Shown here: positions 701 through 61,916 of the stretch, in pieces
Numbering within the stretch: position 1 is the first letter of the stretch
Layout: each line of letters opens with the position of its first letter
Virus record (IMG/VR): IMGVR_UViG_3300037520_001276
Span: 20,397 to 84,396 of that record
DNA from: a virus
DNA length: 64,000 nt
Strand: one strand, 5' to 3'
Program-made: the position numbers and the translations under genes
The notes under the pieces: model-generated
What the model saw: the letters and a program-made list of their open reading frames with translations, nothing else
What the model was told of the DNA's origin: nothing
Database searches by the model: none

Positions 701-1882
701 TTAGTTATATCTCATAACGTAATATTCCTCTCCGTTGATCGTGTACGAATCTGCAGTTCCGTCATAACCATTTAAAACACTTCCATACCCATCAGATCTA
801 ATTACGTCGTCAATAGCCGCCTCAATATCAACAAAATCTAAAAGTGCGTAATTATCATAACCTCTATCTCTTAATAAACTAAATATATCATCTTTGTTAT
901 CATCAACCATACCTTCTATGGTATCTTCAATTTCTTGTTCATTATAGTCACCTTCTGGATTTTCTTTAATGTCCTCTATTAATTGTTGGTAGTCGTAAAT
1001 ATCACTTTCAATTTCTTCTTGTTCTTCATCGGTTAATCCGCCTTCTTCAAGTTTTTGATTTAATCTATCGATATTTGCTTGGTGTATTTCTAAATACCTT
1101 TTTTGTTGATCTGTTAATTCTTTATTTATATTCCAATCTTCTGGACTTTGTCTAACGTATTCACTATAGTCCTCATAAAGATAGTCCCTCACATATCTTT
1201 CATCAATATGATTTTCCCAAACCCATTCTCTAAATGTGTCAAAACCAGATTCCTCAATTTGTGATTCTAACTGTTCTTTTGCCGCATCATATATTTTATC
1301 ACCTTCATAAACAACATATTCACTTTCAAAGTTTTTTGATCCTAACCACAAATAAACACTTGAATTACCATAATGATTATAATTCTCTTTAAATAAAAAA
1401 TACTTATCTTCACCTTCTTCTACGTTTCCACTTTCTTTTAGGTATTCAAAAATTGCTTCAGTTTCATTTGATTCTTTGTCATCATTTTCAACATTCCAAT
1501 CATCATCCTGTCTTAATACGTCTTGATGTGCAAGTCTTTGTTTATGGATTTTTAATTTTTCTAATCTTTGCATTTCAGAACCGTAATAATCAAATCTACC
1601 TCTTACTTTATTTTGATCAAAAAATGGAATTTTGGTATAACTGATATCTAAATCACCTTGTACTAAATCAACACTATCTATATTTGTCACATTTTTATTC
1701 CCTCTAAGATCTAATTCACCTGTAATTCTAATTTTTTTACCGTTATAATCTGGAAGTCTTTTAATAAATGAACCATCACCATTAACATAAGCCAAAAGTT
1801 CTTTATACTCTTCAGGACTAACATCAACCCACTCTTCGGTTTCTTCTTTTATTATTTTTTTAATTAAGGAATTTAAACTCAT
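701..1882 (-). CDS. Acidic hypothetical protein with LIKKIIKEE leader and a short LRR-like segment; probable late/internal virion protein
   Basis: 393-aa ORF; LDLRGNKNVTNIDSVDLVQGDLDISYTKI; TATTTAT just upstream. Confidence 0.75.
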   Translation of the reverse strand: MSLNSLIKKIIKEETEEWVDVSPEEYKELLAYVNGDGSFIKRLPDYNGKKIRITGELDLRGNKNVTNIDSVDLVQGDLDISYTKIPFFDQNKVRGRFDYYGSEMQRLEKLKIHKQRLAHQDVLRQDDDWNVENDDKESNETEAIFEYLKESGNVEEGEDKYFLFKENYNHYGNSSVYLWLGSKNFESEYVVYEGDKIYDAAKEQLESQIEESGFDTFREWVWENHIDERYVRDYLYEDYSEYVRQSPEDWNINKELTDQQKRYLEIHQANIDRLNQKLEEGGLTDEEQEEIESDIYDYQQLIEDIKENPEGDYNEQEIEDTIEGMVDDNKDDIFSLLRDRGYDNYALLDFVDIEAAIDDVIRSDGYGSVLNGYDGTADSYTINGEEYYVMRYN

Positions 1883-5720: not shown

Positions 5721-7097
5721 TTACTTTTGGTCAAAAATAAAGAAGTTTCCGTCTCTTTCCGCTCTTTGTCTTAATGCATCAGGAATAGTTCCATCAAGTT
5801 TGCTATTTTTAATATTAATAATTGAAAGTTTAGGTAATTCTGCTAAACATGCCGGTAATGGTTGTAAGTTTGGATTATCAGGTAAAGATAAGAACTTCAA
5901 CTCTTTTAAATTACAAATACTATCAGGTATTTTAGATACACAACCAACAAGGTGTAATGCGCTTAACTGTTTAAAGTCTCCGATTTTTTCAGGTAAATCT
6001 AAATTAAATGCCGATCCTCCTCCTTTATGTGTGAATTCTAATCTTTTAATGTTTTCAGGTAATGTATCAAAAAATTCATCAAACCCATAAAGTGCAATAA
6101 ATTTAGATGCTGAATCGCCAGGATAATTAACAGATACTTTTTCACCATTATTTTGTGAAAGACCTTTCATAAATTCAGGTTTAAAGTATTCTTTAAGTCC
6201 GTCTTCTTGTTTAGATAAGAAATCAACCAAATCAATTTGTCTATCCGCAGGGTCCATATATTGATTATCAGGAAAATGGAACTGATAACGGAACGCCGGA
6301 AGTCCTGATTTTTCACCAACATCCATACTTCCTGTAAATTTAGTAGGTGAATTAGGTATAACCACATATAACGGCCCTTTACTAATATATCTTTCAAACC
6401 ATGATAAACCTGGTGATGATGTACACCATCTTGTTTCTCCTTTTTGTGGTTCTAAATGGTGTCCACCGTAAAAACATGCCGCGTCTTTTCCTAATTGTCC
6501 TGTGTCAGAAATACGGGCCACTGTCCAATTAGCCCCACGATAAACGATATCAGCACCTGGATGTTGATAAGTTTTGGATGCCTCTTTTTTCTCGTCAGCA
6601 GTTGCCTTAGTTTTTTCTAAACTGAAATCTTTTACTTGATTATAAAGTGTTTCAGGAGTTAACTTATTTATATCTCTATATTCTTGTGATAACCTTCCTT
6701 TAAATTTTTCATACTTCATTAAGTCACCTGTAATCTTATAAATGTCTTCTAAAAATTGTGCTTGGTATTCTTTGATTGCTTGTTTAACTGCCGGACTATT
6801 AGGGTCGGTAACACCACTACTTAAATCAATATTTGGTGTTGCGAAGTTTTTAAGTAACCATTGGGTGTATTTTCCAATTTTTACTTTTTCCATGTCTTCG
6901 GGCTTTGCGTTAATTGCCTCCATTCCTTCAGGAATTCTTGATGTTGGATCTGCAGCAATTATCTCAAATAATACATTAAAAGGCATCATACCTTTTCTTG
7001 TTTCTTTGTTTGGTTTAACGTATTTGTCAAATAATACTTGGAATCTTGAGCTTTCAACAATTAAATCTCTTAAAATACTCGTAAATCTAATAGCCAT
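5721..7097 (-). CDS. Leucine-rich-repeat protein with a WC-motif middle domain and ILRDLIVES leader
   Basis: C-terminal LPEKIGDFKQLSALHL / IPDSICNLKELKFLSL / LPACLAELPKLSIINI repeats; TRWCTS...GPLYV...RYQFHF domain. Confidence 0.85.
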   Translation of the reverse strand: MAIRFTSILRDLIVESSRFQVLFDKYVKPNKETRKGMMPFNVLFEIIAADPTSRIPEGMEAINAKPEDMEKVKIGKYTQWLLKNFATPNIDLSSGVTDPNSPAVKQAIKEYQAQFLEDIYKITGDLMKYEKFKGRLSQEYRDINKLTPETLYNQVKDFSLEKTKATADEKKEASKTYQHPGADIVYRGANWTVARISDTGQLGKDAACFYGGHHLEPQKGETRWCTSSPGLSWFERYISKGPLYVVIPNSPTKFTGSMDVGEKSGLPAFRYQFHFPDNQYMDPADRQIDLVDFLSKQEDGLKEYFKPEFMKGLSQNNGEKVSVNYPGDSASKFIALYGFDEFFDTLPENIKRLEFTHKGGGSAFNLDLPEKIGDFKQLSALHLVGCVSKIPDSICNLKELKFLSLPDNPNLQPLPACLAELPKLSIINIKNSKLDGTIPDALRQRAERDGNFFIFDQK

Positions 7098-7114
7098 AAT
7101 TAAAGTTTTTATTA

Positions 7115-7132
7115 ATAAATATCACAAATATA
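7115..7132 (-). promoter_or_regulatory. Tandem TATATTTG (host-type) and TATTTAT (putative late) promoter elements
   Basis: caaatata at 7125-7132 and ataaata at 7115-7121 on the + strand, upstream of the LRR gene. Confidence 0.5.
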
Positions 7133-7143
7133 AGAAAAATATT

Positions 7144-7983
7144 TTAATAATTCATAATCAATAACTCTTCTCCCATATTTTGTTTTTCTCCTTTCTTTGC
7201 GGATGCCGCCTTAGCAAACTCTTTTTTAACCCAACGGTACTCATTTTCAGGAAACCAAGTGTGTAATAATTCAAAATCATAATAAGATAAACTAAATTTA
7301 CCTTTAACCTTGTGTAAAACTTTAGCCAATCTTTCATGGTCCTGACGGTCAAAATCATGATTTGAGTAGTAGTTTTCAGTTTTCCAATAAGGTGGATCCA
7401 AATAGATATATGTGGATGGAGAATCGTATTTATCAATAACGTCTGAAAAATCCATGTTTTCAACATCAGTAATTTTTAAAAAGTGATCAACCCAATCAGG
7501 TTTTGATAACTTATCTCTAAATGTCAAATATTTTGATTTGTACTTACCTTTAAGGTCAATAAAGTTAGATGTCTCAGGTTTTGATCCACTAAATACTTGT
7601 GTTAGAATATAGACGTATTTGGCTGCGACTTCATAATCACCAGGTTCTACGCTGAAACCTTGACTAAAAATTTCAGCCTGAAAACTTACAAATTGTTGTT
7701 TATATATTTCAGGTGTTAGATCAACACCCTGTTTTTGACAATCTATTGAATTAATTGCTCTCAATAATTCAGATGGATTTTGAACGCATTTGAATAAATT
7801 GTAATTTAATGGATTAAAGTCGTTATAAACAACTTTTTTAAGGTTAGGGTATTGTTTTAGGTCCATGTTATAAAAACACCAATACATCCCTCCAAATGTC
7901 TCTAAATAGACCTCCATATCTTTATCATAGAAAGGGACTATCCACTTTCCGATCTTACTTTTACCTCCAATATAACTTAACAT
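7144..7983 (-). CDS. dam: DNA adenine methyltransferase, D12/Dam family (orphan)
   Basis: YIGGKS, YLETFGG (motif I), YNDFN and YLDPPY (motif IV); target specificity unknown. Confidence 0.9.
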   Translation of the reverse strand: MLSYIGGKSKIGKWIVPFYDKDMEVYLETFGGMYWCFYNMDLKQYPNLKKVVYNDFNPLNYNLFKCVQNPSELLRAINSIDCQKQGVDLTPEIYKQQFVSFQAEIFSQGFSVEPGDYEVAAKYVYILTQVFSGSKPETSNFIDLKGKYKSKYLTFRDKLSKPDWVDHFLKITDVENMDFSDVIDKYDSPSTYIYLDPPYWKTENYYSNHDFDRQDHERLAKVLHKVKGKFSLSYYDFELLHTWFPENEYRWVKKEFAKAASAKKGEKQNMGEELLIMNY

Positions 7984-8050
7984 ATTTTTTTATTGTAAAG
8001 ATAGTAAATTTATTATATTTATCAATAAGCGAAAATATTATTAAAAAAGT

Positions 8051-8081
8051 TTTGGCAGTATCAAAAAAATCATTATCTTTG
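8051..8081 (+). promoter_or_regulatory. Canonical Bacteroidota sigma70 promoter (-33 TTTG, -7 TATCTTTG)
   Basis: TTTG at 8051-8054 and TATCTTTG at 8074-8081, 19-nt spacer. Confidence 0.7.
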
Positions 8082-8087
8082 TACTGT

Positions 8088-8237
8088 TGATGTGGGTAAC
8101 ACTACTGAAAACAAGGATGTCAGTACTCCTAATTAACAATCTGACCGCTGAAAACTGGGTGAATCGGTTTGGGTTAATTACCTCAATTCTGGGAATGAAA
8201 TAATTTAAACCCCATCTTACAAAAGGTGGGGTTTGTT
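8088..8237 (+). ncRNA. Candidate structured ncRNA (about 150 nt)
   Basis: Relatively GC-richer intergenic unit between a promoter and a hairpin; several stems; only a 37-codon ORF with atypical codons. Confidence 0.5.
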
Positions 8238-8238
8238 G
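8207..8238 (+). terminator. Intrinsic terminator-like hairpin AAACCCCATCTT-ACAA-AAGGTGGGGTTT
   Basis: 12-bp stem with one G-U pair, followed by a T-rich tail. Confidence 0.7.
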
Positions 8239-8249
8239 TATTTATTAAT

Positions 8250-8732
8250 ATGAAACTATTAAATGTTTTAAAAAAATTAATAACAGAGTCAATTTTTATT
8301 GATGAATTTGAAATTGATGATCAAATAATTAAATTATTTCAGACTTACGAATCTTTAAGGGCGGTTTCAACTTCAAACAAAACAGGAAGGGTTAGTTCTG
8401 ATGAAATTATGGATTCAATGTCAGATATTTATGACGTGATTATTGATCAATCTAATATCGTTTTAAAAAATTGTGTTAAAAATTGTTCTTTACTTATACG
8501 AGATTTTAGGTTGGGCTTCGATTATCAATTGTTTATCAAAAAAGATAATGAAGATAAACTTAAAATAACAATAAACACGTCAATTAGACACCCTTTAGAC
8601 TTGAGGAATAAAAAATTTAAAACCAGAGAAATTACTATAACTTCAAATGAAAATATTAGAATAAAAGAAAATTTCAATATTAATCAATTTACTAAAATAA
8701 TAAAAGGTGATATTATTATTTATTATAATTAA
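8250..8732 (+). CDS. Hypothetical protein with MKLLNVLKKLITES leader
   Basis: Start moved to ATG 8250 because the track's start lies inside the terminator stem; TATTTAT at 8239-8245. Confidence 0.75.
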   Translation: MKLLNVLKKLITESIFIDEFEIDDQIIKLFQTYESLRAVSTSNKTGRVSSDEIMDSMSDIYDVIIDQSNIVLKNCVKNCSLLIRDFRLGFDYQLFIKKDNEDKLKITINTSIRHPLDLRNKKFKTREITITSNENIRIKENFNINQFTKIIKGDIIIYYN

Positions 8733-8740
8733 TTTAATTT

Positions 8741-8899
8741 ATGGAAAAGAAAGAAGCAACACAAGTTACAGGGTGTCAAACATGTAAAAAAGGTTTAAGT
8801 AAGAGTCAAATTGGTTTAATATTTTTTTCTATGTACATTTTTGCAAGTGCCATTTATGGTACTTACAAGATCATAGAAAATTTAGTTAACATGATTTAA
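8741..8899 (+). CDS. 52-aa small membrane protein with CxxC
   Basis: [45 protein letters not shown]...; not in the ORF track. Confidence 0.7.
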
Positions 8900-9871
8900 A
8901 ACCATTTTTAATTTATCTTTAGATTCTTCATCTAAAGATTCTGTTTTAACTACCGACAATTTAATATAAAAATGTCCCTTCCCATTGTTTGAATCATACC
9001 CCTTGTTTGGTATCCTTAAAGGTGTGTCAGTATCTATCCTATCTGGCATATTTACAGATAATAACCCGTCAGGATGTTCAATTAACAATTTATCATCTAA
9101 AACTAATTGGAGTGGATTTAACTTCATTTTAAATATAAGATCATCTCCAACCTTTTCATAGTTTTTATCGTCAATCATATCTACTTTTATAATGAGGTCC
9201 CCTCTTTGTCTTATATTTGGGTAAAAGTCTCCCTTTCCTCTCATCCTCATAAAGTGTCCGTTGTCGGTGTTTTTAGGGATTGTAAACATAAAAATTTCAG
9301 ACTTTGTTTGTGTTGCCGTACCATTACATATTTTACATGGGTTCATTAACACAGAACCTTGCCCTTGACAAGTTGGACATTGCATTTGTATTTGTTGGCT
9401 GAACATGTTTGTACCAAATGTTTGTATAACAAATCCATTACCTTTACATGTTTCACATATTTTTTTGTTTCCTCCGGTACCATTACAAGGATCGCAAGAT
9501 AAATTACTTTGTAGTCTTATTTCTTTTTTTGCCCCGTGATATGACTCAATTGGTGTTATTTGTATTGAAACTACTTTATCAGGAGCCTTTGGTTTTTGTC
9601 TTCCTCCATTCATCATTTGTTCAAACATACTGTGAATGTCAAAACCTCCGTTTGACATACCAGCAAAAGGATTATTTTTTCTATTATCATAGTCCCTTCT
9701 TTTGTTTTCATCACCTATGTTTTCATAAGCCTCACTCACCTCTTTAAACCTTTCTTCACCATCAGGGTTTACATCCGGATGGAATTGTTTACTTAATTGT
9801 CTGTAGGCCTTTTTAATATCGTCTTGTGTTGCGTTTTCGTCAACACCTAAAATTTCATAGTAGTTCTTCAT
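8882..9871 (-). CDS. dnaJ: DnaJ co-chaperone
   Basis: [10 protein letters not shown]...HPD J-domain, four CxxCxGxG-type repeats and C-terminal domain; start set at ATG 9871. Confidence 0.95.
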
Positions 9872-10514
9872 GGATAGTAAATTTATTATCGTACTTTTTA
9901 AAAATAAAAAAAAAAGAAAAATTATCAAACGTTATACCACAGAAAAAAACGCAAAATTGTTTTTTGATGATCTAATAGAAAAGCAAAATCAAATTATTTT
10001 TCCAAAAGTTATAGAGAACGCAGAAGAGACATCTTATACGTTAGGTCTTTTAACTAACACAACAAATGTTCAAAAAAGTTTATTTATTAAAGATGATGTC
10101 GGTAGAAACATACCCGCTACTATTGAAAACAGTCCTTATGTTTTTTTAGATTTAGTTAGTTATAAACAAGAAGAAAAGATTTTTGATTGGCAAACAAAGA
10201 ATAAAATTACTTTTTTAGAGTTTATTAAAAATTACTGTAACAATACTGAATTAAAAAACATATTTACTCTTAACAATAAAATATGTGTTCAAAAAGATAC
10301 TGAGTTATACGCATTCTCATTAAAAGATAAAAATGAATCTGTTAGATTTTTAGACACTTTACAGGACTATTTCTTTTCTAATAATAGACTGGATGGTCTT
10401 TTTGTAAAAGATATATCCACAACACAAAGGAAGTGGATATATAATGTGTTAACCGAAAAAGGTTTTGATAAGAAAAGATTATATAGACTAAAAACTACTT
10501 TTTCAAAAAGGTAA
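9870..10514 (+). CDS. Hypothetical protein
   Basis: 214-aa ORF whose ATG overlaps the dnaJ start codon. Confidence 0.8.
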
Positions 10515-10713
10515 AATTAACGTTCCCTATTGATACTACGCACTTGTTTCTTTTTCCGTTATTTAATTCTTTAGATATTTGTTCAAATATGGTTTCTTCT
10601 AAATAACTTATAATTTCAATTGGATCATTACCTAAAAACGTGTCTTCTATGTTTTCAACAACGTTTGCAAATTTAACTAACTCATCCCTAAAGTTTTCAA
10701 TATTCTTCGCCAT
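10495..10713 (-). CDS. Hypothetical protein
   Basis: 72-aa ORF in an operon. Confidence 0.65.
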   Translation of the reverse strand: MAKNIENFRDELVKFANVVENIEDTFLGNDPIEIISYLEETIFEQISKELNNGKRNKCVVSIGNVNFTFLKK

Positions 10714-18788: not shown

Positions 18789-21236
18789 TTATTTTAATAA
18801 AAATCCAAGTTCATACACTAAAGGTCTCATTTCATTATCCAAGTTACTTAGAAGGGATTCAAATACACGTTTTTCGTTTTCGGTGAATAACCTTTTTAGT
18901 TGTATGTACCCAATATCCCACCCTTCTTCTGAAATTCTATCAACATATTTAGAGTAGAGTTTAAAATACTCTCTCAAAATATTTTGACATGGTTCGGGTA
19001 ATTTATCGAACATACCATCATTGTACAATATGTTTGCAACATACCTATCATTTGAAATTTCAAAATCGTTATAAACTGAAATTGTAGCATTTTCATTAAT
19101 TTTTTTCCCTATATGTTTTTTTGTGAAGGGGAAAAATTGATTTTTTACACGATAGTTATTACCACCATACTCTTTAGTCAACCAAGCGGTTTGATTTGAG
19201 CTTTCAGAAAACATTGATTTTACAATTGACATAAAATAAAAACTTTCATACTGTTCGTGATTTTTGTTGGGATTTAAGTATTCATCTTGGTCATTTAACC
19301 AATTTAGTCTTATCAATTTTCTGGCCGAGAACATCATAACAGCCTCTTTAAACCCATCTTTATCAAAAGAGATTCCGTTAGAAGATGCAAATGGCATTGT
19401 ATACAAACCAACCATTTGACTATTGTATTGGACCTTGTTTGAGTTGTTATGTAAAAATCCGATAAAATTTGTTTTAACTGTATCCTTTCTAACACCTTCA
19501 ATCGGAACATCAAAACCATTGATAGTTGGAACAAAAATTTCAGTATCTTTTTTATTAATCCACCCTTGTTTTAACCAATCTTTAGCGGATTTCTTACTGT
19601 CAGTATTGTAAAAACTTTTTTCACCAATTTTTACCACGTCAAGACCTTGCCTCTCCAAAATGTCAAATGTAAAATTTTGTGAATCATCCTCAACTCCACA
19701 TTCGAAAATCGCAAAAATAAGTGGCCAAGTTTTAACACCCGAAAATTCTTTAGCATTAAACACAAAACCTTTTATGAATTTGTGAGTTTTGGACATATAT
19801 GTCCTTAGTGATTGGTAATCAGGGCCTGTGAAAAAAATTGGTTTGAAGAAATATGCGATGTGAACTTTTTTACCCGTTTTTTTATGGAGGTCTATGTCTT
19901 GAAATAAGAATTGTGCGAATAGTTGGTCTGAACAAGAACCCAAACCTTCTTGTTTCATCAAACCTTTTACAATGGTATCTGATATACCTTCTTTACTTGA
20001 TGAACCAAAATTTGTGGAGGTACCATAAGGTGGATTCTGTAAACTTATAACTTCATCACAATTATTAATAAAATCATTAATCATTTTAGGAAGGTATTGG
20101 TTAGATGTTGATAATCTATCAAAATCTAAGACATTAGAACCTTGATTCAACCCCCCCTGTAATATTGTATCTGAGTCTGATTTTTCTAAAGTAGTCTGTA
20201 GTAGTTTAGAATAAGAACGATCTCTTGTTAGATTACCGGTGCCGGCACTTGCATCCCAAACACCAAAAAAAGTATTTTGACGAAACGAAGGAAAAATAGA
20301 CTCTAAATATTCATTCGCACACTCAGCCCAAACCTCACGAGTATAAAAAGCACCATTCCTTCTACGTTCAGCATCTTCAATTAAGGTATCTTGCGTGGAA
20401 ATGATTTTCTTTTTTTCGGTGTTTGTAAAATTTTGGACATCAAACCCGTTCATTAGATAACCGAAGGTTTTTACATCTACTTTAATCTTATTGTTACCAA
20501 AACTTTCTGTAATTAAAACACCGCCTTCACGGTCTTTATTTATTTTATTACTTGTAGGGTTTGTAAATAATTGTACAAACAAATTTACCGAATCGTTAGA
20601 TTTCATTTTAGTTTTTAAAACTTCTTCTTCCCAATAATCAAAGGCTTTTTTAATTTTATTTGCGGTTACAGGTCTTTTTTGGATAGCACCTGTACAATAA
20701 TTAATAACTTCTTTATATATAATAGGTAGTGAGTGTTCTGTGATTTTATGATATTGTGGTAATAGATCACCCGATTCCAAACAAATTAAGAGGTTTTCAT
20801 ATAATGTCGGTAGTTTTGTATATGCATCATGAGCTGAGCTTACAGACCAATCAACATCTAAAGCTAAAAACTGTATCAATTGATTTGTATGAAAAAAAAC
20901 AAATTCATCTTTATCTACGATAGCAACAACTTTAGGTGTTTTAAGGTTACTACTTTCATCCATTCGTTTTAAATAAATTAAAGTTTGACATAACTTTTTA
21001 GCCAAATTCGAGTCATTATTTAAATTTGTTTGGAGTTTGAATTCAAAAAGAATACTTATGTATTTTGGGTCTCCGAGTTTTGCATCATTATATAATACAC
21101 CGTCATTTCTAACTTCTCGTTTAAATATTAGATTAGAATTAATTCTTTTAAAATACTCAATAATGCCTTGTTGTACAACTGTTTCATCATTTGCAACGTA
21201 TAATTGATTGATAGTATTACCTGTAATTGTTCCCAT
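18789..21236 (-). CDS. Fused restriction endonuclease / N6-adenine methyltransferase (type IIG-like)
   Basis: N-terminal NDG...FEFK...QTLIY nuclease motifs; GAFYT, VWDASAGTGNL (motif I) and NPPYG (motif IV); long C-terminal region, possibly the target recognition domain. Confidence 0.8.
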   Translation of the reverse strand: MGTITGNTINQLYVANDETVVQQGIIEYFKRINSNLIFKREVRNDGVLYNDAKLGDPKYISILFEFKLQTNLNNDSNLAKKLCQTLIYLKRMDESSNLKTPKVVAIVDKDEFVFFHTNQLIQFLALDVDWSVSSAHDAYTKLPTLYENLLICLESGDLLPQYHKITEHSLPIIYKEVINYCTGAIQKRPVTANKIKKAFDYWEEEVLKTKMKSNDSVNLFVQLFTNPTSNKINKDREGGVLITESFGNNKIKVDVKTFGYLMNGFDVQNFTNTEKKKIISTQDTLIEDAERRRNGAFYTREVWAECANEYLESIFPSFRQNTFFGVWDASAGTGNLTRDRSYSKLLQTTLEKSDSDTILQGGLNQGSNVLDFDRLSTSNQYLPKMINDFINNCDEVISLQNPPYGTSTNFGSSSKEGISDTIVKGLMKQEGLGSCSDQLFAQFLFQDIDLHKKTGKKVHIAYFFKPIFFTGPDYQSLRTYMSKTHKFIKGFVFNAKEFSGVKTWPLIFAIFECGVEDDSQNFTFDILERQGLDVVKIGEKSFYNTDSKKSAKDWLKQGWINKKDTEIFVPTINGFDVPIEGVRKDTVKTNFIGFLHNNSNKVQYNSQMVGLYTMPFASSNGISFDKDGFKEAVMMFSARKLIRLNWLNDQDEYLNPNKNHEQYESFYFMSIVKSMFSESSNQTAWLTKEYGGNNYRVKNQFFPFTKKHIGKKINENATISVYNDFEISNDRYVANILYNDGMFDKLPEPCQNILREYFKLYSKYVDRISEEGWDIGYIQLKRLFTENEKRVFESLLSNLDNEMRPLVYELGFLLK

Positions 21237-29002: not shown

Positions 29003-31195
29003 TTAAAAATCTAATTTAATAGGATACTGTTGAATCCCTTGTCTTTTTTCAGGTGATTGTATCTTAGAAATAACCATAAGTTCTTTCTCAGAGTTGTAAA
29101 GAGCAAGTTCGGTTACGTGTGGTGTCTTAGTTTTATCCCAAGTAGGGTTTGATGAATCAAAAAATTGTGTCTGACCTAAGTTACATAGATAGTTCATAAC
29201 ATAAATTGTTGCCTGAATATCTGTCTGAATTGTACCATAAAAATAAAACTCACCACCAAAATTAAAAGTAGTCCCCGTTTGATTTAAAGATGGAAGGTCA
29301 ATATAATTATCTAATCTATATGTTGGTGCAGAATTATACAAAGTTTCAGTTATTTGTAATGTAGTTCCTGTCAATCCTGTCACTGTTAAATAACCACCTA
29401 CGGTTGTTGCCGATAACTGTGAACTCATATCAATTTCTCTCCACTGTGTTGGGTCGGGTCTTGTCGTTCCATATGTTACTTTTTGTGCCAATATTTTTAA
29501 ACTATTCGCAGTAAAACCGCTTGGTGTTGTTCCAATTTGTGAAACTAAAAATGGAAACTCGTTTCCAAATCTGAATAAAACGTCTGTTGATCCTGGTATT
29601 GTTGTTTGGTCATAGCCCGATACTTTTGAGTAATAATTACAATGTAATGAGTTGGTAAATGCTGTATTGTTAAATCTATATGTTACAAATAAACTTTCCG
29701 CACTTCCTGATAATAATCCTGTAGTACTACCATCAGTACCACATAATGTATTTGGAATAATTAGTCCTAATTGTGGTGCCGGTAATGTCCAAGATCTGTT
29801 TGATTTGTTATTTAATGTTGCAACAATTTCTTCATCATCAAATATGACCATTTTGTAGTCAGGATAAACTTTACCTACCCTATTTGGTATTCCGTTTGTA
29901 TTTGGATGTGTGTCCCATAAATGATAGTACCTTAAACCAGGTGCATTAAAATTTAAGTCTCTTGTTGATTCCATATAATATTCTTGAAATAAATTAAGAG
30001 ATGTAAAACCTGATGGGTCAACATAAAAATCTTCACCTACAGTTCCATTACTATTTTTGTGCCACATTAACCAAGGTAAAGACAATTTAAAGTTCCTTGC
30101 TTGTCCTGTATTACCTGGATTTGTTGGGTCATATTCTTGAAATGCGAATTTTTCACCATAAAAATTATCTATAGCTTGATTTGTATAATGTAAAATAGCA
30201 ACCGATTTTTGATCTTTCGGTTCTACTGTAATTTTTTCAGACAATGAATTATAGTAATATACCGAATCGGTATCTGTCTGTCCCTCAGATTTATTGTAAC
30301 CGAAATATTCTTTTGATCCTGTATATCCTGTAGATTCGTAAAAATTATAATTTTGGTTTAAATTATTAAATACCCCTGCTGGTGATTCAGTCCAAGGCGA
30401 ATTCATGTTCCAAATAACCACATTTCTTTGTGAAACATCACAATTTGTTTCAAAATTAAACACATCAGTAGCCCAATATGGTTGTGGTGTGAAAGTATCA
30501 TATAGATCGGTCATTTGTTCGGGGTAAAATAAACAAGAACTATTTCCCGTTATACCCATAGAACTAAAATCAGGAACTTGTCTATCTACTTGTATAGTGA
30601 TGGTAGTTGCTGTTGACGTATTACCTGTTATTCCGACAACCTTATATGTAAACATAGGTCCATTATTAGATACTGGAGATAATAACCCATTTGTAAATAT
30701 TGTAATAAAATCACCTTCACTAACAGTACCAGAAACACTAACATTTACGCTACTATACGTTAATGTTATTGTATTTCCTGATGATAAAGTCGTGTTATCA
30801 ATTACAAAATTTGGATTTAATGTATACGCCGAAGTTGTAAATCCCGTACTACCAGTAAAAAATCCTCTTGGTGCTGCACTATTAAAAACATCATCAATGT
30901 ATGAGTCGTCAAATGGAATACCGAATGTACTTCCTGAAGTAGAATCAACAAATAAAGGATATTTAATGTTCATTCTATTTCTATCGGGTATTGGTGCCAT
31001 GTTTTGAGCATTATATTGTGGCATCAAAACATTTGACTCAACTAAATTCATTCCATTTACACAATTGTAACAAACTTCGCTATCACCTACTTGAAAATAA
31101 GCAATATCAAATTTTCCTTGTGAAAGTTTTTTTCTCGCAGCGTCTGTAAGTTGCGTATTAATTAATGCTGATGTGTTTTTAATTATGTATGACAT
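29003..31195 (-). CDS. Baseplate/tail-collar structural protein
   Basis: N-terminal LTDAARKKL..F.IAYFQVGDSE and C-terminal TELALYNSEKELMVISK resemble tail-collar fibre domains; TATTTAT at 31201-31207. Confidence 0.65.
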   Translation of the reverse strand: MSYIIKNTSALINTQLTDAARKKLSQGKFDIAYFQVGDSEVCYNCVNGMNLVESNVLMPQYNAQNMAPIPDRNRMNIKYPLFVDSTSGSTFGIPFDDSYIDDVFNSAAPRGFFTGSTGFTTSAYTLNPNFVIDNTTLSSGNTITLTYSSVNVSVSGTVSEGDFITIFTNGLLSPVSNNGPMFTYKVVGITGNTSTATTITIQVDRQVPDFSSMGITGNSSCLFYPEQMTDLYDTFTPQPYWATDVFNFETNCDVSQRNVVIWNMNSPWTESPAGVFNNLNQNYNFYESTGYTGSKEYFGYNKSEGQTDTDSVYYYNSLSEKITVEPKDQKSVAILHYTNQAIDNFYGEKFAFQEYDPTNPGNTGQARNFKLSLPWLMWHKNSNGTVGEDFYVDPSGFTSLNLFQEYYMESTRDLNFNAPGLRYYHLWDTHPNTNGIPNRVGKVYPDYKMVIFDDEEIVATLNNKSNRSWTLPAPQLGLIIPNTLCGTDGSTTGLLSGSAESLFVTYRFNNTAFTNSLHCNYYSKVSGYDQTTIPGSTDVLFRFGNEFPFLVSQIGTTPSGFTANSLKILAQKVTYGTTRPDPTQWREIDMSSQLSATTVGGYLTVTGLTGTTLQITETLYNSAPTYRLDNYIDLPSLNQTGTTFNFGGEFYFYGTIQTDIQATIYVMNYLCNLGQTQFFDSSNPTWDKTKTPHVTELALYNSEKELMVISKIQSPEKRQGIQQYPIKLDF

Positions 31196-34614: not shown

Positions 34615-34899
34615 TTATTGAAATTGATATTCGTCTCCATCTTGAAATTCAAAATAATCTCCGTCTTCAAATTGTTTATACGATGCCGATGATGTTTCAC
34701 AATAAACACATCCCACATCATCAATAATTTTTATAACATAACTAGGGTATGTTTCATATACAGATGGTAATGTAAAACTATAAGGTGTTGTTGTTATTGT
34801 GTCATGATACACACAAGTACCAAAACATGTGTCACATATCCATATATTATATGGCGATGTTCCACTTGTAATTGAATTAATTGTTACTTGATATGACAT
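34615..34899 (-). CDS. Small Cys-containing fibre adaptor-like protein (paralogue 1)
   Basis: G..PY.I..CD...C...ID..GC.Y pattern shared with the 41875 and 42178 ORFs; TATTTAT at 34905-34911. Confidence 0.7.
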   Translation of the reverse strand: MSYQVTINSITSGTSPYNIWICDTCFGTCVYHDTITTTPYSFTLPSVYETYPSYVIKIIDDVGCVYCETSSASYKQFEDGDYFEFQDGDEYQFQ

Positions 34900-60662: not shown

Positions 60663-61127
60663 TTAGATATTTATTATAATAAATTCTCTACTACCAAATG
60701 CCTTTGCTTCGTCTGTGTAGTCAATTTTTAGTTTAGCGGTGTATTCACCAGTATTTTGGCCAGGTATTTTAAAAACGCTAGCCTGACCCAATAATTCGTA
60801 ATTTAAATCACCAGGGGCTTCGTCACTTTCTAAAAAAGGCTCAACAGAAATATTATTAATAGTTAAGTTTGGTATGTACTTTGCAACCTGTTCTTCAATG
60901 TCAGTCCTAATACTATCAAATGTTTCTCCGTCTAAAGGTTCAAATATAAATTCATATATTCTTGTTCCAAAATCAGGTAAATAATATCTAGTTCCCTTCC
61001 TTGTTAAAATTAAATGTAATAAATTACTTCTTATTTCTTCTGAAGTCTCTTCAGATAAAGACAAATAAAAACCTTTATCGCTTTGTCTAAAAGGAAAATT
61101 TATTCCATATGTTGTTCCATCTGCCAT
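60663..61127 (-). CDS. gp25/GPW-like baseplate wedge (sheath initiator)
   Basis: GINFPF...IRSNLLHLILTRKGTRYYLPDFGT.I...IFEP; TATTTAT at 61133-61139. Confidence 0.9.
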   Translation of the reverse strand: MADGTTYGINFPFRQSDKGFYLSLSEETSEEIRSNLLHLILTRKGTRYYLPDFGTRIYEFIFEPLDGETFDSIRTDIEEQVAKYIPNLTINNISVEPFLESDEAPGDLNYELLGQASVFKIPGQNTGEYTAKLKIDYTDEAKAFGSREFIIINI

Positions 61128-61178: not shown

Positions 61179-61916
61179 TTATATACGATTACCAATATCA
61201 CTTAGCGCTTGCCAATGTGATAGACCATCTTTTGTTGAACTAGCACCACTAACAATACCTAAACCTCGATATTGGTTTGGTCCTACGTATACGTTTTTTT
61301 TAGGAACACCTGAACTAACGGCGGATTTAACAACACTACTTGTTTTTTTACTAACAGCGTATGGTTCAATTATAAAAACTTTATTTTTATTTGTGTTTTT
61401 ATTAATTGCAACATCAGAAGCCAAATTACATCCCGCACTAAACATAAAAACATATAATCCAGGATTTTCATCTATTATTTTTTTTACTTCAGATGCACTT
61501 GTATTATATCTAACTCCTTTTATTTTTTTTGTCTGACCAAAAGAACTTTTTAATAAATTGACTTGTTGTCCGATAGAATAATCACCTCTTCTAGTGTCTA
61601 AACCACCAATTAAGAGAGCGTCGTAATTGTTTTTATTTTTTGATTTTGAAGCACTAATAGTAAACTCTGGTAAATCTTTATTTAATTCATCTTTATTTTT
61701 ATCGTACAAAGATTTAGTGCTTGATGTTGATGATTTTGGTGGTTCGCTTTTTTTATTATCATTTGTTGGTTTACTGCTATTTTTTTCCGCGTCGTTTGCC
61801 GATTTTTTAGCAATATCAGACCCCAATTTTAAAATATCTTCCCAACTCATTTCTTCTAAAAGGACCTTTCTAACTATACTTTGTAGTTTTTTTTCACTTA
61901 TATATTTTTTTCTCAT
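61179..61916 (-). CDS. Leader-bearing protein with alpha/beta-hydrolase-like C-domain
   Basis: LQSIVRKVLLEE leader; LIGG, FMFSAGC (nucleophile-elbow-like), IIEPY and SHW; TATTTAT at 61923-61929. Confidence 0.55.
   Translation of the reverse strand: MRKKYISEKKLQSIVRKVLLEEMSWEDILKLGSDIAKKSANDAEKNSSKPTNDNKKSEPPKSSTSSTKSLYDKNKDELNKDLPEFTISASKSKNKNNYDALLIGGLDTRRGDYSIGQQVNLLKSSFGQTKKIKGVRYNTSASEVKKIIDENPGLYVFMFSAGCNLASDVAINKNTNKNKVFIIEPYAVSKKTSSVVKSAVSSGVPKKNVYVGPNQYRGLGIVSGASSTKDGLSHWQALSDIGNRI

Follow-up and report, generated by a model that had tools for sequence, protein, structure and literature searches.

The toxins found in type III toxin–antitoxin systems, ToxN/AbiQ, CptN and TenpN, have an endoribonuclease fold in common and sequences that are unlike each other. 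In the corresponding loci (ToxIN, CptIN and TenpIN), a promoter, a structured RNA, a palindromic terminator and a small protein gene follow one another in this order, the RNA being the antitoxin. According to the parts of the published accounts considered here and below, the RNA arrays consist of repeats of 31–62 nucleotides (nt) in 1.9–5.6 copies, with a mean toxin length of 149–168 amino acids (aa) (Blower 2012, PMC3401426), and homologues of TenpIN have been reported in viruses (PMC12283969). In AvcID, a bacterial defence system, AvcI is a single small RNA (sRNA) without repeats, with a minimal functional length of about 171 nt, which inhibits a toxin that is not a ribonuclease (RNase), the deoxycytidylate deaminase AvcD; in the same part of that account no terminator is predicted between avcI and avcD (PMC10511110). 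Repeats and an RNase toxin are, therefore, both dispensable for a system that follows the type III logic. Here we describe a locus of comparable layout in a stretch of 64,000 nt of viral DNA (positions 20,397 to 84,396 of the IMG/VR virus record IMGVR_UViG_3300037520_001276; hereafter the window, whose coordinates are used throughout). Comparison with relatives shows at about 8086–8240 a discrete RNA, non-coding and some 155 nt long, which belongs to a phage RNA family that we have not found described and is followed by the gene of a 160-aa orphan protein, P0005. We tentatively propose that the RNA works like a type III antitoxin partner of P0005, which is not to say that the pair is a member of any of the known systems.

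The order of promoter, RNA module(s), terminator and protein gene is that of ToxIN, CptIN and TenpIN. The module is a 57-nt unit made of two hairpins, P2 and P3 (Table 1), and its length as well as that of P0005 lie inside the published ranges (PMC3401426). The terminator, a stem-loop at 8206–8235 with a T run, stands about 15 nt before the open reading frame (ORF) of P0005, which starts at ATG 8250. As in the known systems, the copy number varies (here between one and two), a pseudoknot is plausible, and the whole is an accessory element. With AvcID the locus shares a structured, non-repeat sRNA of comparable size encoded beside a protein, inhibition being the feature of AvcI.

The evidence for the RNA comes mainly from comparison. 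The promoter is of the Bacteroidota type, and transcription would start at about 8086; its pattern (TTTG-N18/19-TAnnTTTG) was found in 17 out of 17 homologues, with different spacer sequences, and occurs 12 times in the 84-kilobase (kb) record against 4.0 ± 2.0 times in shuffled sequences. Structure is best seen in P3. For pairing we relied on two module-level alignments, A3 and A6, the latter being fitted to the structure of the model and thus favouring it: 97.8% of the P3 cells of 31 distinct modules are paired, both-side changes occur at all six pairs, and the covariation score was reached by none of 500 shuffles, slid controls being 17–36% paired. The same hairpin was 96–98% paired in a set of 17 modules, again with all six pairs changed on both sides. 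Across relatives its stem has 6–7 base pairs (bp) and changes freely in sequence with pairing kept. A preliminary description of the stretch, made from the sequence alone, had put forward covariation as a check on its structured RNA; covariation was indeed found, but in a hairpin (8152–8157/8165–8170) that was absent from its list of stems.

The single sequence would not have sufficed for this conclusion. The region 8086–8238 folds with a z score of -1.90 (13 of 200 shuffles fold equally well; z -1.68 for the opposite strand), and without the terminator (8086–8204) the fold is not above chance (z +0.12; 109 of 200 shuffles equally stable), so that the reality of the RNA rests on the comparative data. 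These were obtained by two pattern searches. The pattern of the conserved tail gave 11 viral and 32 metagenome stretches, which together with the loci collected earlier made 31 distinct sequences, 17 of them true homologues and 14 chance matches; the pattern of the P2 region gave 52 viral stretches, 45 being new loci, in which a covariance model built from 17 modules (R1) found 26 matches at 55–81 bits. In a full-length MAFFT alignment (A4), several rows are shifted against the others at P3, which was therefore only 62.5% paired, and 59.7% when slid by +1; RNAalifold on A4 missed P1 and P3.

No Rfam 15 family matched the window at the gathering score, a check also named in the preliminary description, and at E ≤ 10 the region 7900–8400 gave 13 weak and scattered matches, none of them 6S. 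ARAGORN detected no tRNA or tmRNA. Neither the RNA nor P0005 nor the second-type protein discussed below had a match among 50,697 GenBank phage records, and the 2.5-kb neighbourhood was matched only at its methyltransferase part, in four uncultured huge phages. Pattern scans of 185,579 bacterial and archaeal species, one genome each, revealed no RNA module and no close P0005 relative; the four stretches that fit the RNA pattern there are chance hits, because R1 gives them at most 14.2 bits as compared with at least 55 bits for real modules. RNA and protein were found only in phage and metagenome contigs, and full-text searches on type III systems and phage-encoded RNA antitoxins brought up no description of such a cassette. 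The DNA of the window was detected in lake and freshwater metagenome runs, and no RNA run was among the 24 public runs containing it. The 84-kb record has an estimated completeness of 29%, and the complete genomes among the relatives measure 290–304 kb; R1 is present once in the record and once in the complete 304-kb relative, while the 290-kb relative has no copy and carries the other cassette type. The RNA thus represents a new phage family with strong covariation, outside all Rfam models, modular and mobile, which appears to be common in freshwater giant phages of Bacteroidota, if the host may be judged from the promoter type.

The features listed in the preliminary description were all found where it had placed them, namely the promoter (TTTG at 8051–8054, a 19-nt spacer and TATCTTTG at 8074–8081), GATGTGGGT at 8089–8097, CTGAAAAC at both 8105 and 8148, the terminator hairpin (8206–8235, 13 pairs including 5 G-C, with a T-rich tail), a 37-aa ORF at 8090–8203 and four stems. 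While these stems can all be formed in the window, only one of them, GTCAG 8119–8123/CTGAC 8141–8145, is kept in the relatives. This is P2, with 93.5% of cells paired and three of its five pairs never varying; its near invariance means that it yields no covariation evidence, and its conserved loop measures 16–17 nt across relatives. The supposed competitor of this stem, TACTGA 8103–8108/TCAGTA 8120–8125, is 79% paired with gaps in 5–8 of 12 rows and zero covariation, and ACCG 8144–8147/CGGT 8165–8168 is 50% paired. For TAATTAAC 8130–8137/GTTAATTA 8173–8180, whose inner 5 bp we considered as a pseudoknot (PK2), 72% of cells are paired and no clear covariation was seen.

The unit as reconstructed from the relatives begins with a leader hairpin, P1, which is found in 12 out of 12 distinct leaders with stems that differ in sequence and size (e.g. 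GTGTT/AACAC versus GTGAT/ATCAC). The candidate pseudoknot PK1, between the segment preceding P2 and the P2 loop, is 94.2% paired in 31 distinct modules, with an outer pair that is A-U in 24, G-C in 6 and G-U in 1; it must be considered suggestive only, because just this one pair covaries. P3 is followed by a conserved single-stranded tail. The first part of this tail (8171–8188) may resemble the 3'-terminal region of 16S rRNA past its last hairpin, and in that case the RNA might act as a mimic of a ribosomal target. We dropped the idea that GGTG in the P3 loop pairs with CACC in the tail, since by eye this pairing is not conserved. The arms of the terminator differ among subgroups (CCCCATC.., CCCTCC.., CCCCTTC..) and still pair. 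A hairpin scan gave three terminator-like sites in 7000–10000, against 1.1 expected.

Table 1. Features of the RNA locus and its surroundings. Positions are those of the window unless a locus number (L) is given.
Feature	Position	Strand	Remarks
D12-class adenine methyltransferase	7144–7983	-	Pfam E 4e-19; one flank of the RNA locus
Insertion/deletion cassette, ~740 bp (promoter, RNA, terminator, ORF)	7985–8725	.	alignment to relatives
Bacteroidota-type promoter	8051–8081	+	TTTG, 19-nt spacer, TATCTTTG
P1, 5' leader hairpin of variable size	8085–8113	+	folding of leaders
PK1, candidate pseudoknot, AGGA 8114–8117 with TCCT 8127–8130 (P2 loop)	8114–8130	+
P2 stem, GTCAG 8119–8123/CTGAC 8141–8145, 17-nt conserved loop	8119–8145	+
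P3 hairpin, AAACTG 8152–8157/CGGTTT 8165–8170, loop GGTGAAT	8152–8170	+
Single-stranded conserved tail	8171–8204	+	GGGTTAATTA, CCTCAATT (8181–8188), AATGAAATAAT (8194–8204)
Intrinsic terminator, stem-loop 8206–8235 with T-rich tail	8206–8246	+	hairpin scan
TATTTAT motif	8239–8245	+	at -11 from the P0005 ATG, between terminator and start codon
P0005, 160-aa orphan protein	8250–8732	+	ATG 8250, conserved start; other flank of the RNA locus
52-aa ORF	8741–8899		downstream of P0005
DnaJ homologue	8882–9928	-	downstream of the 52-aa ORF start
Further TATTTAT-preceded ORFs	29003–31195, 34615–34899, 60663–61127, 61179–61916	all -
ORFs with hydrophobic-x-E leader	8250–8291; 5721–7097 (-); 701–1882 (-); two ORFs upstream of the window
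Second cassette type	L021:3232–3990 (-), L068:3220–3990 (-), L149		same genomic site

The 37-aa ORF raises the question of whether the conservation is that of a coded peptide rather than of an RNA. Its frame is open in the window and in six further distinct homologues (L032, L099, L082, L094, L112 and L126), i.e. intact in only 7 of 18, and closed or startless in the other 11: codon 2 is a stop in L069, L106 and L118, the frame is truncated in L107, and the group of L035, L110, L128, L096, L115, L125 and L039 has a shorter leader without ATG, a P2 loop shorter by 1 nt, and stops in all frames. Moreover, the changes in the P3 region are compensatory as RNA and radical as peptide (ENWVNRF in the window, AGCRVCRH in L032), the tail is nearly invariant in A4 at all three codon positions, and the peptide has no family match. 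Codon-type conservation, which the preliminary description had opposed to its RNA, was therefore not what we found, and a coding role for the region is the least probable of all the explanations considered, being close to excluded.

Nearly the same can be said of a 6S-like RNA that traps the RNA polymerase holoenzyme, the first of the two functions proposed in the preliminary description. In common with 6S and 6S-Flavo RNAs, the RNA is small (about 155 nt) and abundant-looking, and has a promoter and a terminator to itself; according to the preliminary description, the phage also has a sigma factor. However, no 6S or 6S-Flavo model matched it, either at E up to 10 in 7900–8400 or at the gathering score in the whole window; the conserved fold is a series of local hairpins with unpaired ends and no central bubble, not a rod; and the copy number of the module varies. 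This possibility, too, is close to excluded. What stood of that description is the RNA gene itself, which the comparison supports as discrete, structured and non-coding, with a promoter of host type and an intrinsic terminator, while neither of its functional proposals, the polymerase decoy and the attenuator or riboswitch discussed below, was borne out.

The protein encoded downstream, P0005, is, judging from its alignments, a genuine conserved gene. Database gene calls place its start at GTG 8226 (P0006, 168 aa), inside the 3' arm of the terminator; the sequence MKLL at the start is conserved in 25 out of 25 aligned rows, which indicates ATG 8250 as the true start. There are 31 relatives at E ≤ 1e-3, and an exhaustive search gave 36 cluster representatives, all unnamed; in the clusters of six relatives the members are annotated as 'hypothetical protein' or nameless. 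Residues E13, R47 and T110 are invariant in the 32 rows of alignment A2, D85, D91, S111 and H114 are found in at least 90% of the rows, and most rows have the motif NTSIxHP. A viral-contig scan with alignment A1 recovered at least four loci, and the same scan of the bacterial and archaeal species genomes gave zero matches; when viral contigs were scanned with P0053 and P0043, no relatives turned up.

The cassette nature of the locus emerged from the alignment of window region 7000–10600 with loci of methyltransferase relatives, 80 of 555 loci being compared. In the closest relatives (L002 and L012, at 100% protein identity, and also L004, L025, L036, L046, L050, L062, L063 and L065), window positions 7984 and 8726 map about 43 bp apart, and promoter, RNA, terminator and 160-aa ORF are jointly missing. 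A cassette of similar size with a different middle occupies the same site in L021–24, L056, L059, L068 and L078–80; what it shares with the window is the promoter, the transcript's first ~25 bases and the 3' junction (8721–8793). In other phages (L106, L107, L118, L125 and L126), homologous cassettes adjoin a different gene. The alignments thus show that the RNA and the small orphan protein form a swappable cassette.

In the second cassette type, promoter and leader start are as in the window, but the RNA, of ~150 nt, is another one with hairpins of its own (in L059 the leader stem is GTAG/CTAC instead of GTGG/CCAC); it is followed by a terminator, a TATTTAT motif and a 168-aa protein. This protein is distantly related to P0005 (hhalign probability 60.6%, E 8e-5, 101 columns), and the A2 profile itself does not detect it. 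The type of RNA goes with the type of protein: the window-type RNA precedes proteins of the A2 family, and at the same site an unrelated-looking RNA precedes a second protein family.

The association between RNA and protein is asymmetrical. When the search started from the protein, the RNA was found in 6 out of 6 distinct loci (L082, L086, L069, L032, L039 and L035), and second-type loci had their own RNA in 7 out of 7. When loci were tabulated from the RNA, an A2-family ORF followed the terminator in 20 of 31, and the RNA occurred without a P0005-family protein in L188, L174/L190, L167/L159, L183/L186, L126 and L107. In L096 (1485–1535, -) all that is left of the P0005-family gene are its first 9 and last 16 codons, joined in frame to encode 25 aa, and RNA, promoter and terminator before it are intact. 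In the loci compared, a protein never seen without an RNA and an RNA sometimes seen without the protein make up the pattern expected of a toxin and its antidote.

Further evidence comes from the arrangement of the modules, of which 22 of the 31 tabulated loci have one and nine have two. The 57-nt unit is present in L069 in 2.1 head-to-tail copies with 93% match (Tandem Repeats Finder), and is also duplicated head to tail in L094 and L112. In window region 7950–8300, Tandem Repeats Finder detected no tandem repeat; by eye, the leader and the tail of the window RNA resemble degenerate partial copies of the module, which would explain the doubled CTGAAAAC. Unlike subtypes are combined in other arrays: those of L195 and L158 have a 'b' module upstream and, next to the terminator, a module that matches the subtype of the protein downstream, and in L163 a 'b' module is followed by a module of another subtype. 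The module is repeated together with the tail, with a period of 92 nt, in L197 and L185. In L107, a window-type module with its tail is joined to a second-type RNA, and only a second-type protein follows.

All these observations, i.e. layout, sizes, variation in copy number, matching between RNA and protein types, and asymmetry, led us to regard RNA and P0005 as a type III-like pair, an interpretation which we prefer to the others, although we hold it tentatively and somewhat short of calling it probable. According to this proposal, the RNA would be made early and abundantly by the host RNA polymerase, with transcription ending at the terminator, and P0005 would be made separately from a signal of its own, TATTTAT. 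The RNA would bind the cognate P0005 and keep it inactive, as a type III RNA antitoxin does, and extra or orphan modules would provide immunity against related proteins of other phages. P0005 itself, through its N-terminal L/I-x-E leader, might be loaded into the capsid and cut there by a prohead protease of the type of T4 gp21.

Several points weigh against this interpretation. P0005 has no detectable similarity to ToxN, CptN, TenpN, AbiQ or any known family: Pfam (including ToxN_toxin), PHROGs, NCBIfam and PADLOC gave no match, its profile gave no hit at E ≤ 10 against all PDB chain sequences, and ESM Atlas, which lists P0005 and P0091, has no model of either and gave no usable neighbour; the ToxN Pfam family was also without a match in the record of the window and in 14 control genomes. 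The repeat array that is classic for type III loci is not seen, since most loci have a single module (22 of 31, and all seven second-type RNAs), and the window has one as compared with the at least 1.9 published copies. Unlike the known toxins, for which neither feature is reported, P0005 has its own start signal and a leader resembling those for capsid targeting, and the module, unlike those of ToxIN, CptIN and TenpIN, lies between a dedicated hairpin on its 5' side and a tail that is conserved. With respect to AvcID, the differences are the orphan protein, the location on a phage-borne element and the strong terminator between RNA and gene. An A2-family ORF could not be matched in 11 of the 31 loci (L118 is cut by the contig end, and several have unrelated downstream genes), which could mean that the RNA does not depend on the protein for its work. 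The loci found by way of the protein are few, 6 + 7 distinct ones, and joint inheritance of the cassette would also match subtypes without any physical interaction. It is for the lack of a repeat array in the window and of a toxin match, and for the presence of a separate start signal and a capsid-type leader, that we say the pair 'works like' a type III system and do not assign it to one.

Alternatively, the RNA may be a stand-alone trans-acting phage sRNA, base-pairing with targets or acting as a sponge for a host factor, with a function unrelated to the protein downstream. In such a case the linkage would be a consequence of promoter–RNA–terminator units and accessory genes recombining in a hyperplastic region, as is the case for the composite early promoter/terminator stem-loops (PeSLs) of T4-like phages, which are reported to mediate indels and gene swaps in such regions (PMC4122927). 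In our locus, too, an early-type promoter and a terminator stem-loop bracket an indel in a hyperplastic region, the cassette differs between close relatives in the way PeSL-mediated changes do (PMC4122927), and the shared cassette ends (promoter and leader on one side, the 3' junction on the other) look like recombination points. Unlike what is described for PeSLs in the part of that account considered (PMC4122927), however, some 120 nt of covarying conserved RNA lie here between promoter and terminator, and therefore selection acts on the transcript and not on a DNA motif alone.

Other data agree with a trans-acting role. Module, tail and terminator form an invariant unit, the usual shape of the 3' domain of bacterial sRNAs, and the long conserved single-stranded P2 loop and tail could be seed regions. 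The RNA is found without an A2-family gene after the stop codon of another gene (L167/L159 and L183/L186, with a fresh promoter after the unit), alone before a small ORF with a CxxC motif (L188, L174/L190), and before unrelated ORFs (L197/L185, and L126, where the ORF has a weak PG_binding_1 match, E 0.0012). On the other hand, a purely trans-acting sRNA, for which no target was found, none having been looked for, would not readily account for RNA of the matching type directly upstream of A2- or A5-family genes in 6 of 6 and 7 of 7 distinct loci, for two homologous protein families with two different RNAs at one position, or for the agreement in mixed arrays between the proximal module and the protein subtype. 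We regard this alternative as a real one, though rather doubtful.

A cis-acting leader, that is, a riboswitch or protein-dependent attenuator gating transcription into the 160-aa ORF, is the other function that the preliminary description had suggested. The terminator only ~15 nt before the ORF start, the many conserved unpaired nucleotides and the candidate pseudoknot, reminiscent of an aptamer, would suit it. Tandem aptamers are known among riboswitches. However, the terminator arms change, and by eye none of the pairings that might compete with them is conserved. The 5' GATGTGGGT had been proposed to pair with the terminator arm; also by eye, this is limited to the subgroup of the window, and in the groups of L032, L126 and L035 the arms differ without a matching change at the 5' end. 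Because no antiterminator is conserved, the terminator looks constitutive. In addition, the TATTTAT signal of the ORF lies between the terminator and the ATG, the units of L167/L159 and L183/L186 at the 3' end of another gene are followed by a fresh promoter and have nothing to gate, duplicated modules share a single terminator, and no Rfam riboswitch matched. A gating function is, therefore, quite improbable.

The signal TATTTAT is not peculiar to P0005. It occurs within 30 nt upstream of 22 of the 84 ORFs of the record. At -13 to -11 it stands in 12 of the 84, where 0.11 would be expected, and genes for fibres and other structural components are among these 12. It is thus a candidate for a phage-specific, possibly late, promoter or start signal with very short leaders. 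Furthermore, [LIVM]-x-E is present at aligned residues 11–13 in all rows of the three protein alignments (25/25 in A1, 32/32 in A2 and 5/5 in A5). Several proteins of unrelated families preceded by TATTTAT also start with a leader ending in hydrophobic-x-E (MKRLIKES.., MSLNSLIKKIIKEE.., MAIRFTSILRDLIVES..). The strict form of this leader is found in 4 of the 84 ORFs, all four with TATTTAT, and is a candidate capsid-targeting or propeptide signal.

Such a leader recalls the internal proteins of T4. The prohead protease gp21 is reported to cut after L/I-X-E (PMC9026906), and in IPIII the first 10 residues are reported to suffice for capsid targeting, the internal proteins being hypervariable beyond the leader (PMC9026906, PMC3012670). 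Like IPI, IPII and IPIII, P0005 is small, accessory and hypervariable, with a conserved short leader that ends in L/I-x-E, and its locus differs between close relatives. A gp21-type protease (Peptidase_S77) was above the cut-off in both complete relatives (E 1.4e-23 in G001, 3.0e-23 in G002); it was not found in the record of the window, which is 29% complete. However, P0005 has no sequence similarity to the T4 proteins beyond the motif, and its packaging and cleavage are predictions from sequence. For the T4 internal proteins we know of no RNA partner. We infer from these features that P0005 may be late, capsid-loaded and probably also injected.

If so, P0005 could be a virion-packed weapon, a toxin and perhaps an RNase, with the RNA as its antidote. 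The injected protein would target the host, or a resident or rival phage; within minutes the host polymerase would transcribe the RNA, the toxin would be switched off and the phage's own programme would run. An antidote made of RNA would make sense here, since it does not depend on protein synthesis. Immunity to toxins injected by competing phages would then come from orphan modules and from mixed arrays (b+a, b+c, b+d), much as the orphan immunity genes of bacteriocin and secretion systems do. In this full form the scenario is unlikely.

Should the RNA indeed be the partner of P0005, the two would be a new RNA and protein family in the type III class, and a type III-like system would have been found not in bacterial defence but in a giant phage that looks lytic. 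If P0005 is also injected, they would be an effector and antidote pair split over two infection phases, with RNA immunity traded between phages; we found no description of such a split pair in the searches on type III systems and phage RNA antitoxins. The locus also offers a compact candidate pair for RNA–protein recognition with several natural specificity variants, and the positional TATTTAT signal and the candidate capsid-targeting leader help annotate such phages.

Two minor observations may be added. In L197 (3776–4496, +) and L185 (4890–5595, -), the two module-plus-tail units precede an unrelated ORF of ~160 aa, which starts with an I/L-x-E leader (MKILITEN..) and may represent a third family of protein partners. 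Within 8705–8740, the final P0005 codons (GDIIIYYN) contain a TATTTAT motif ahead of the 52-aa ORF. This conserved ORF, whose product combines a CxxC pair with a hydrophobic tail, is present with or without the cassette. The C-terminal peptide GDIIIYY is common even to family members with ~30% identity, and the motif within its codons may explain why it stays shared, which suggests a DNA-level constraint on the end of the P0005 gene.

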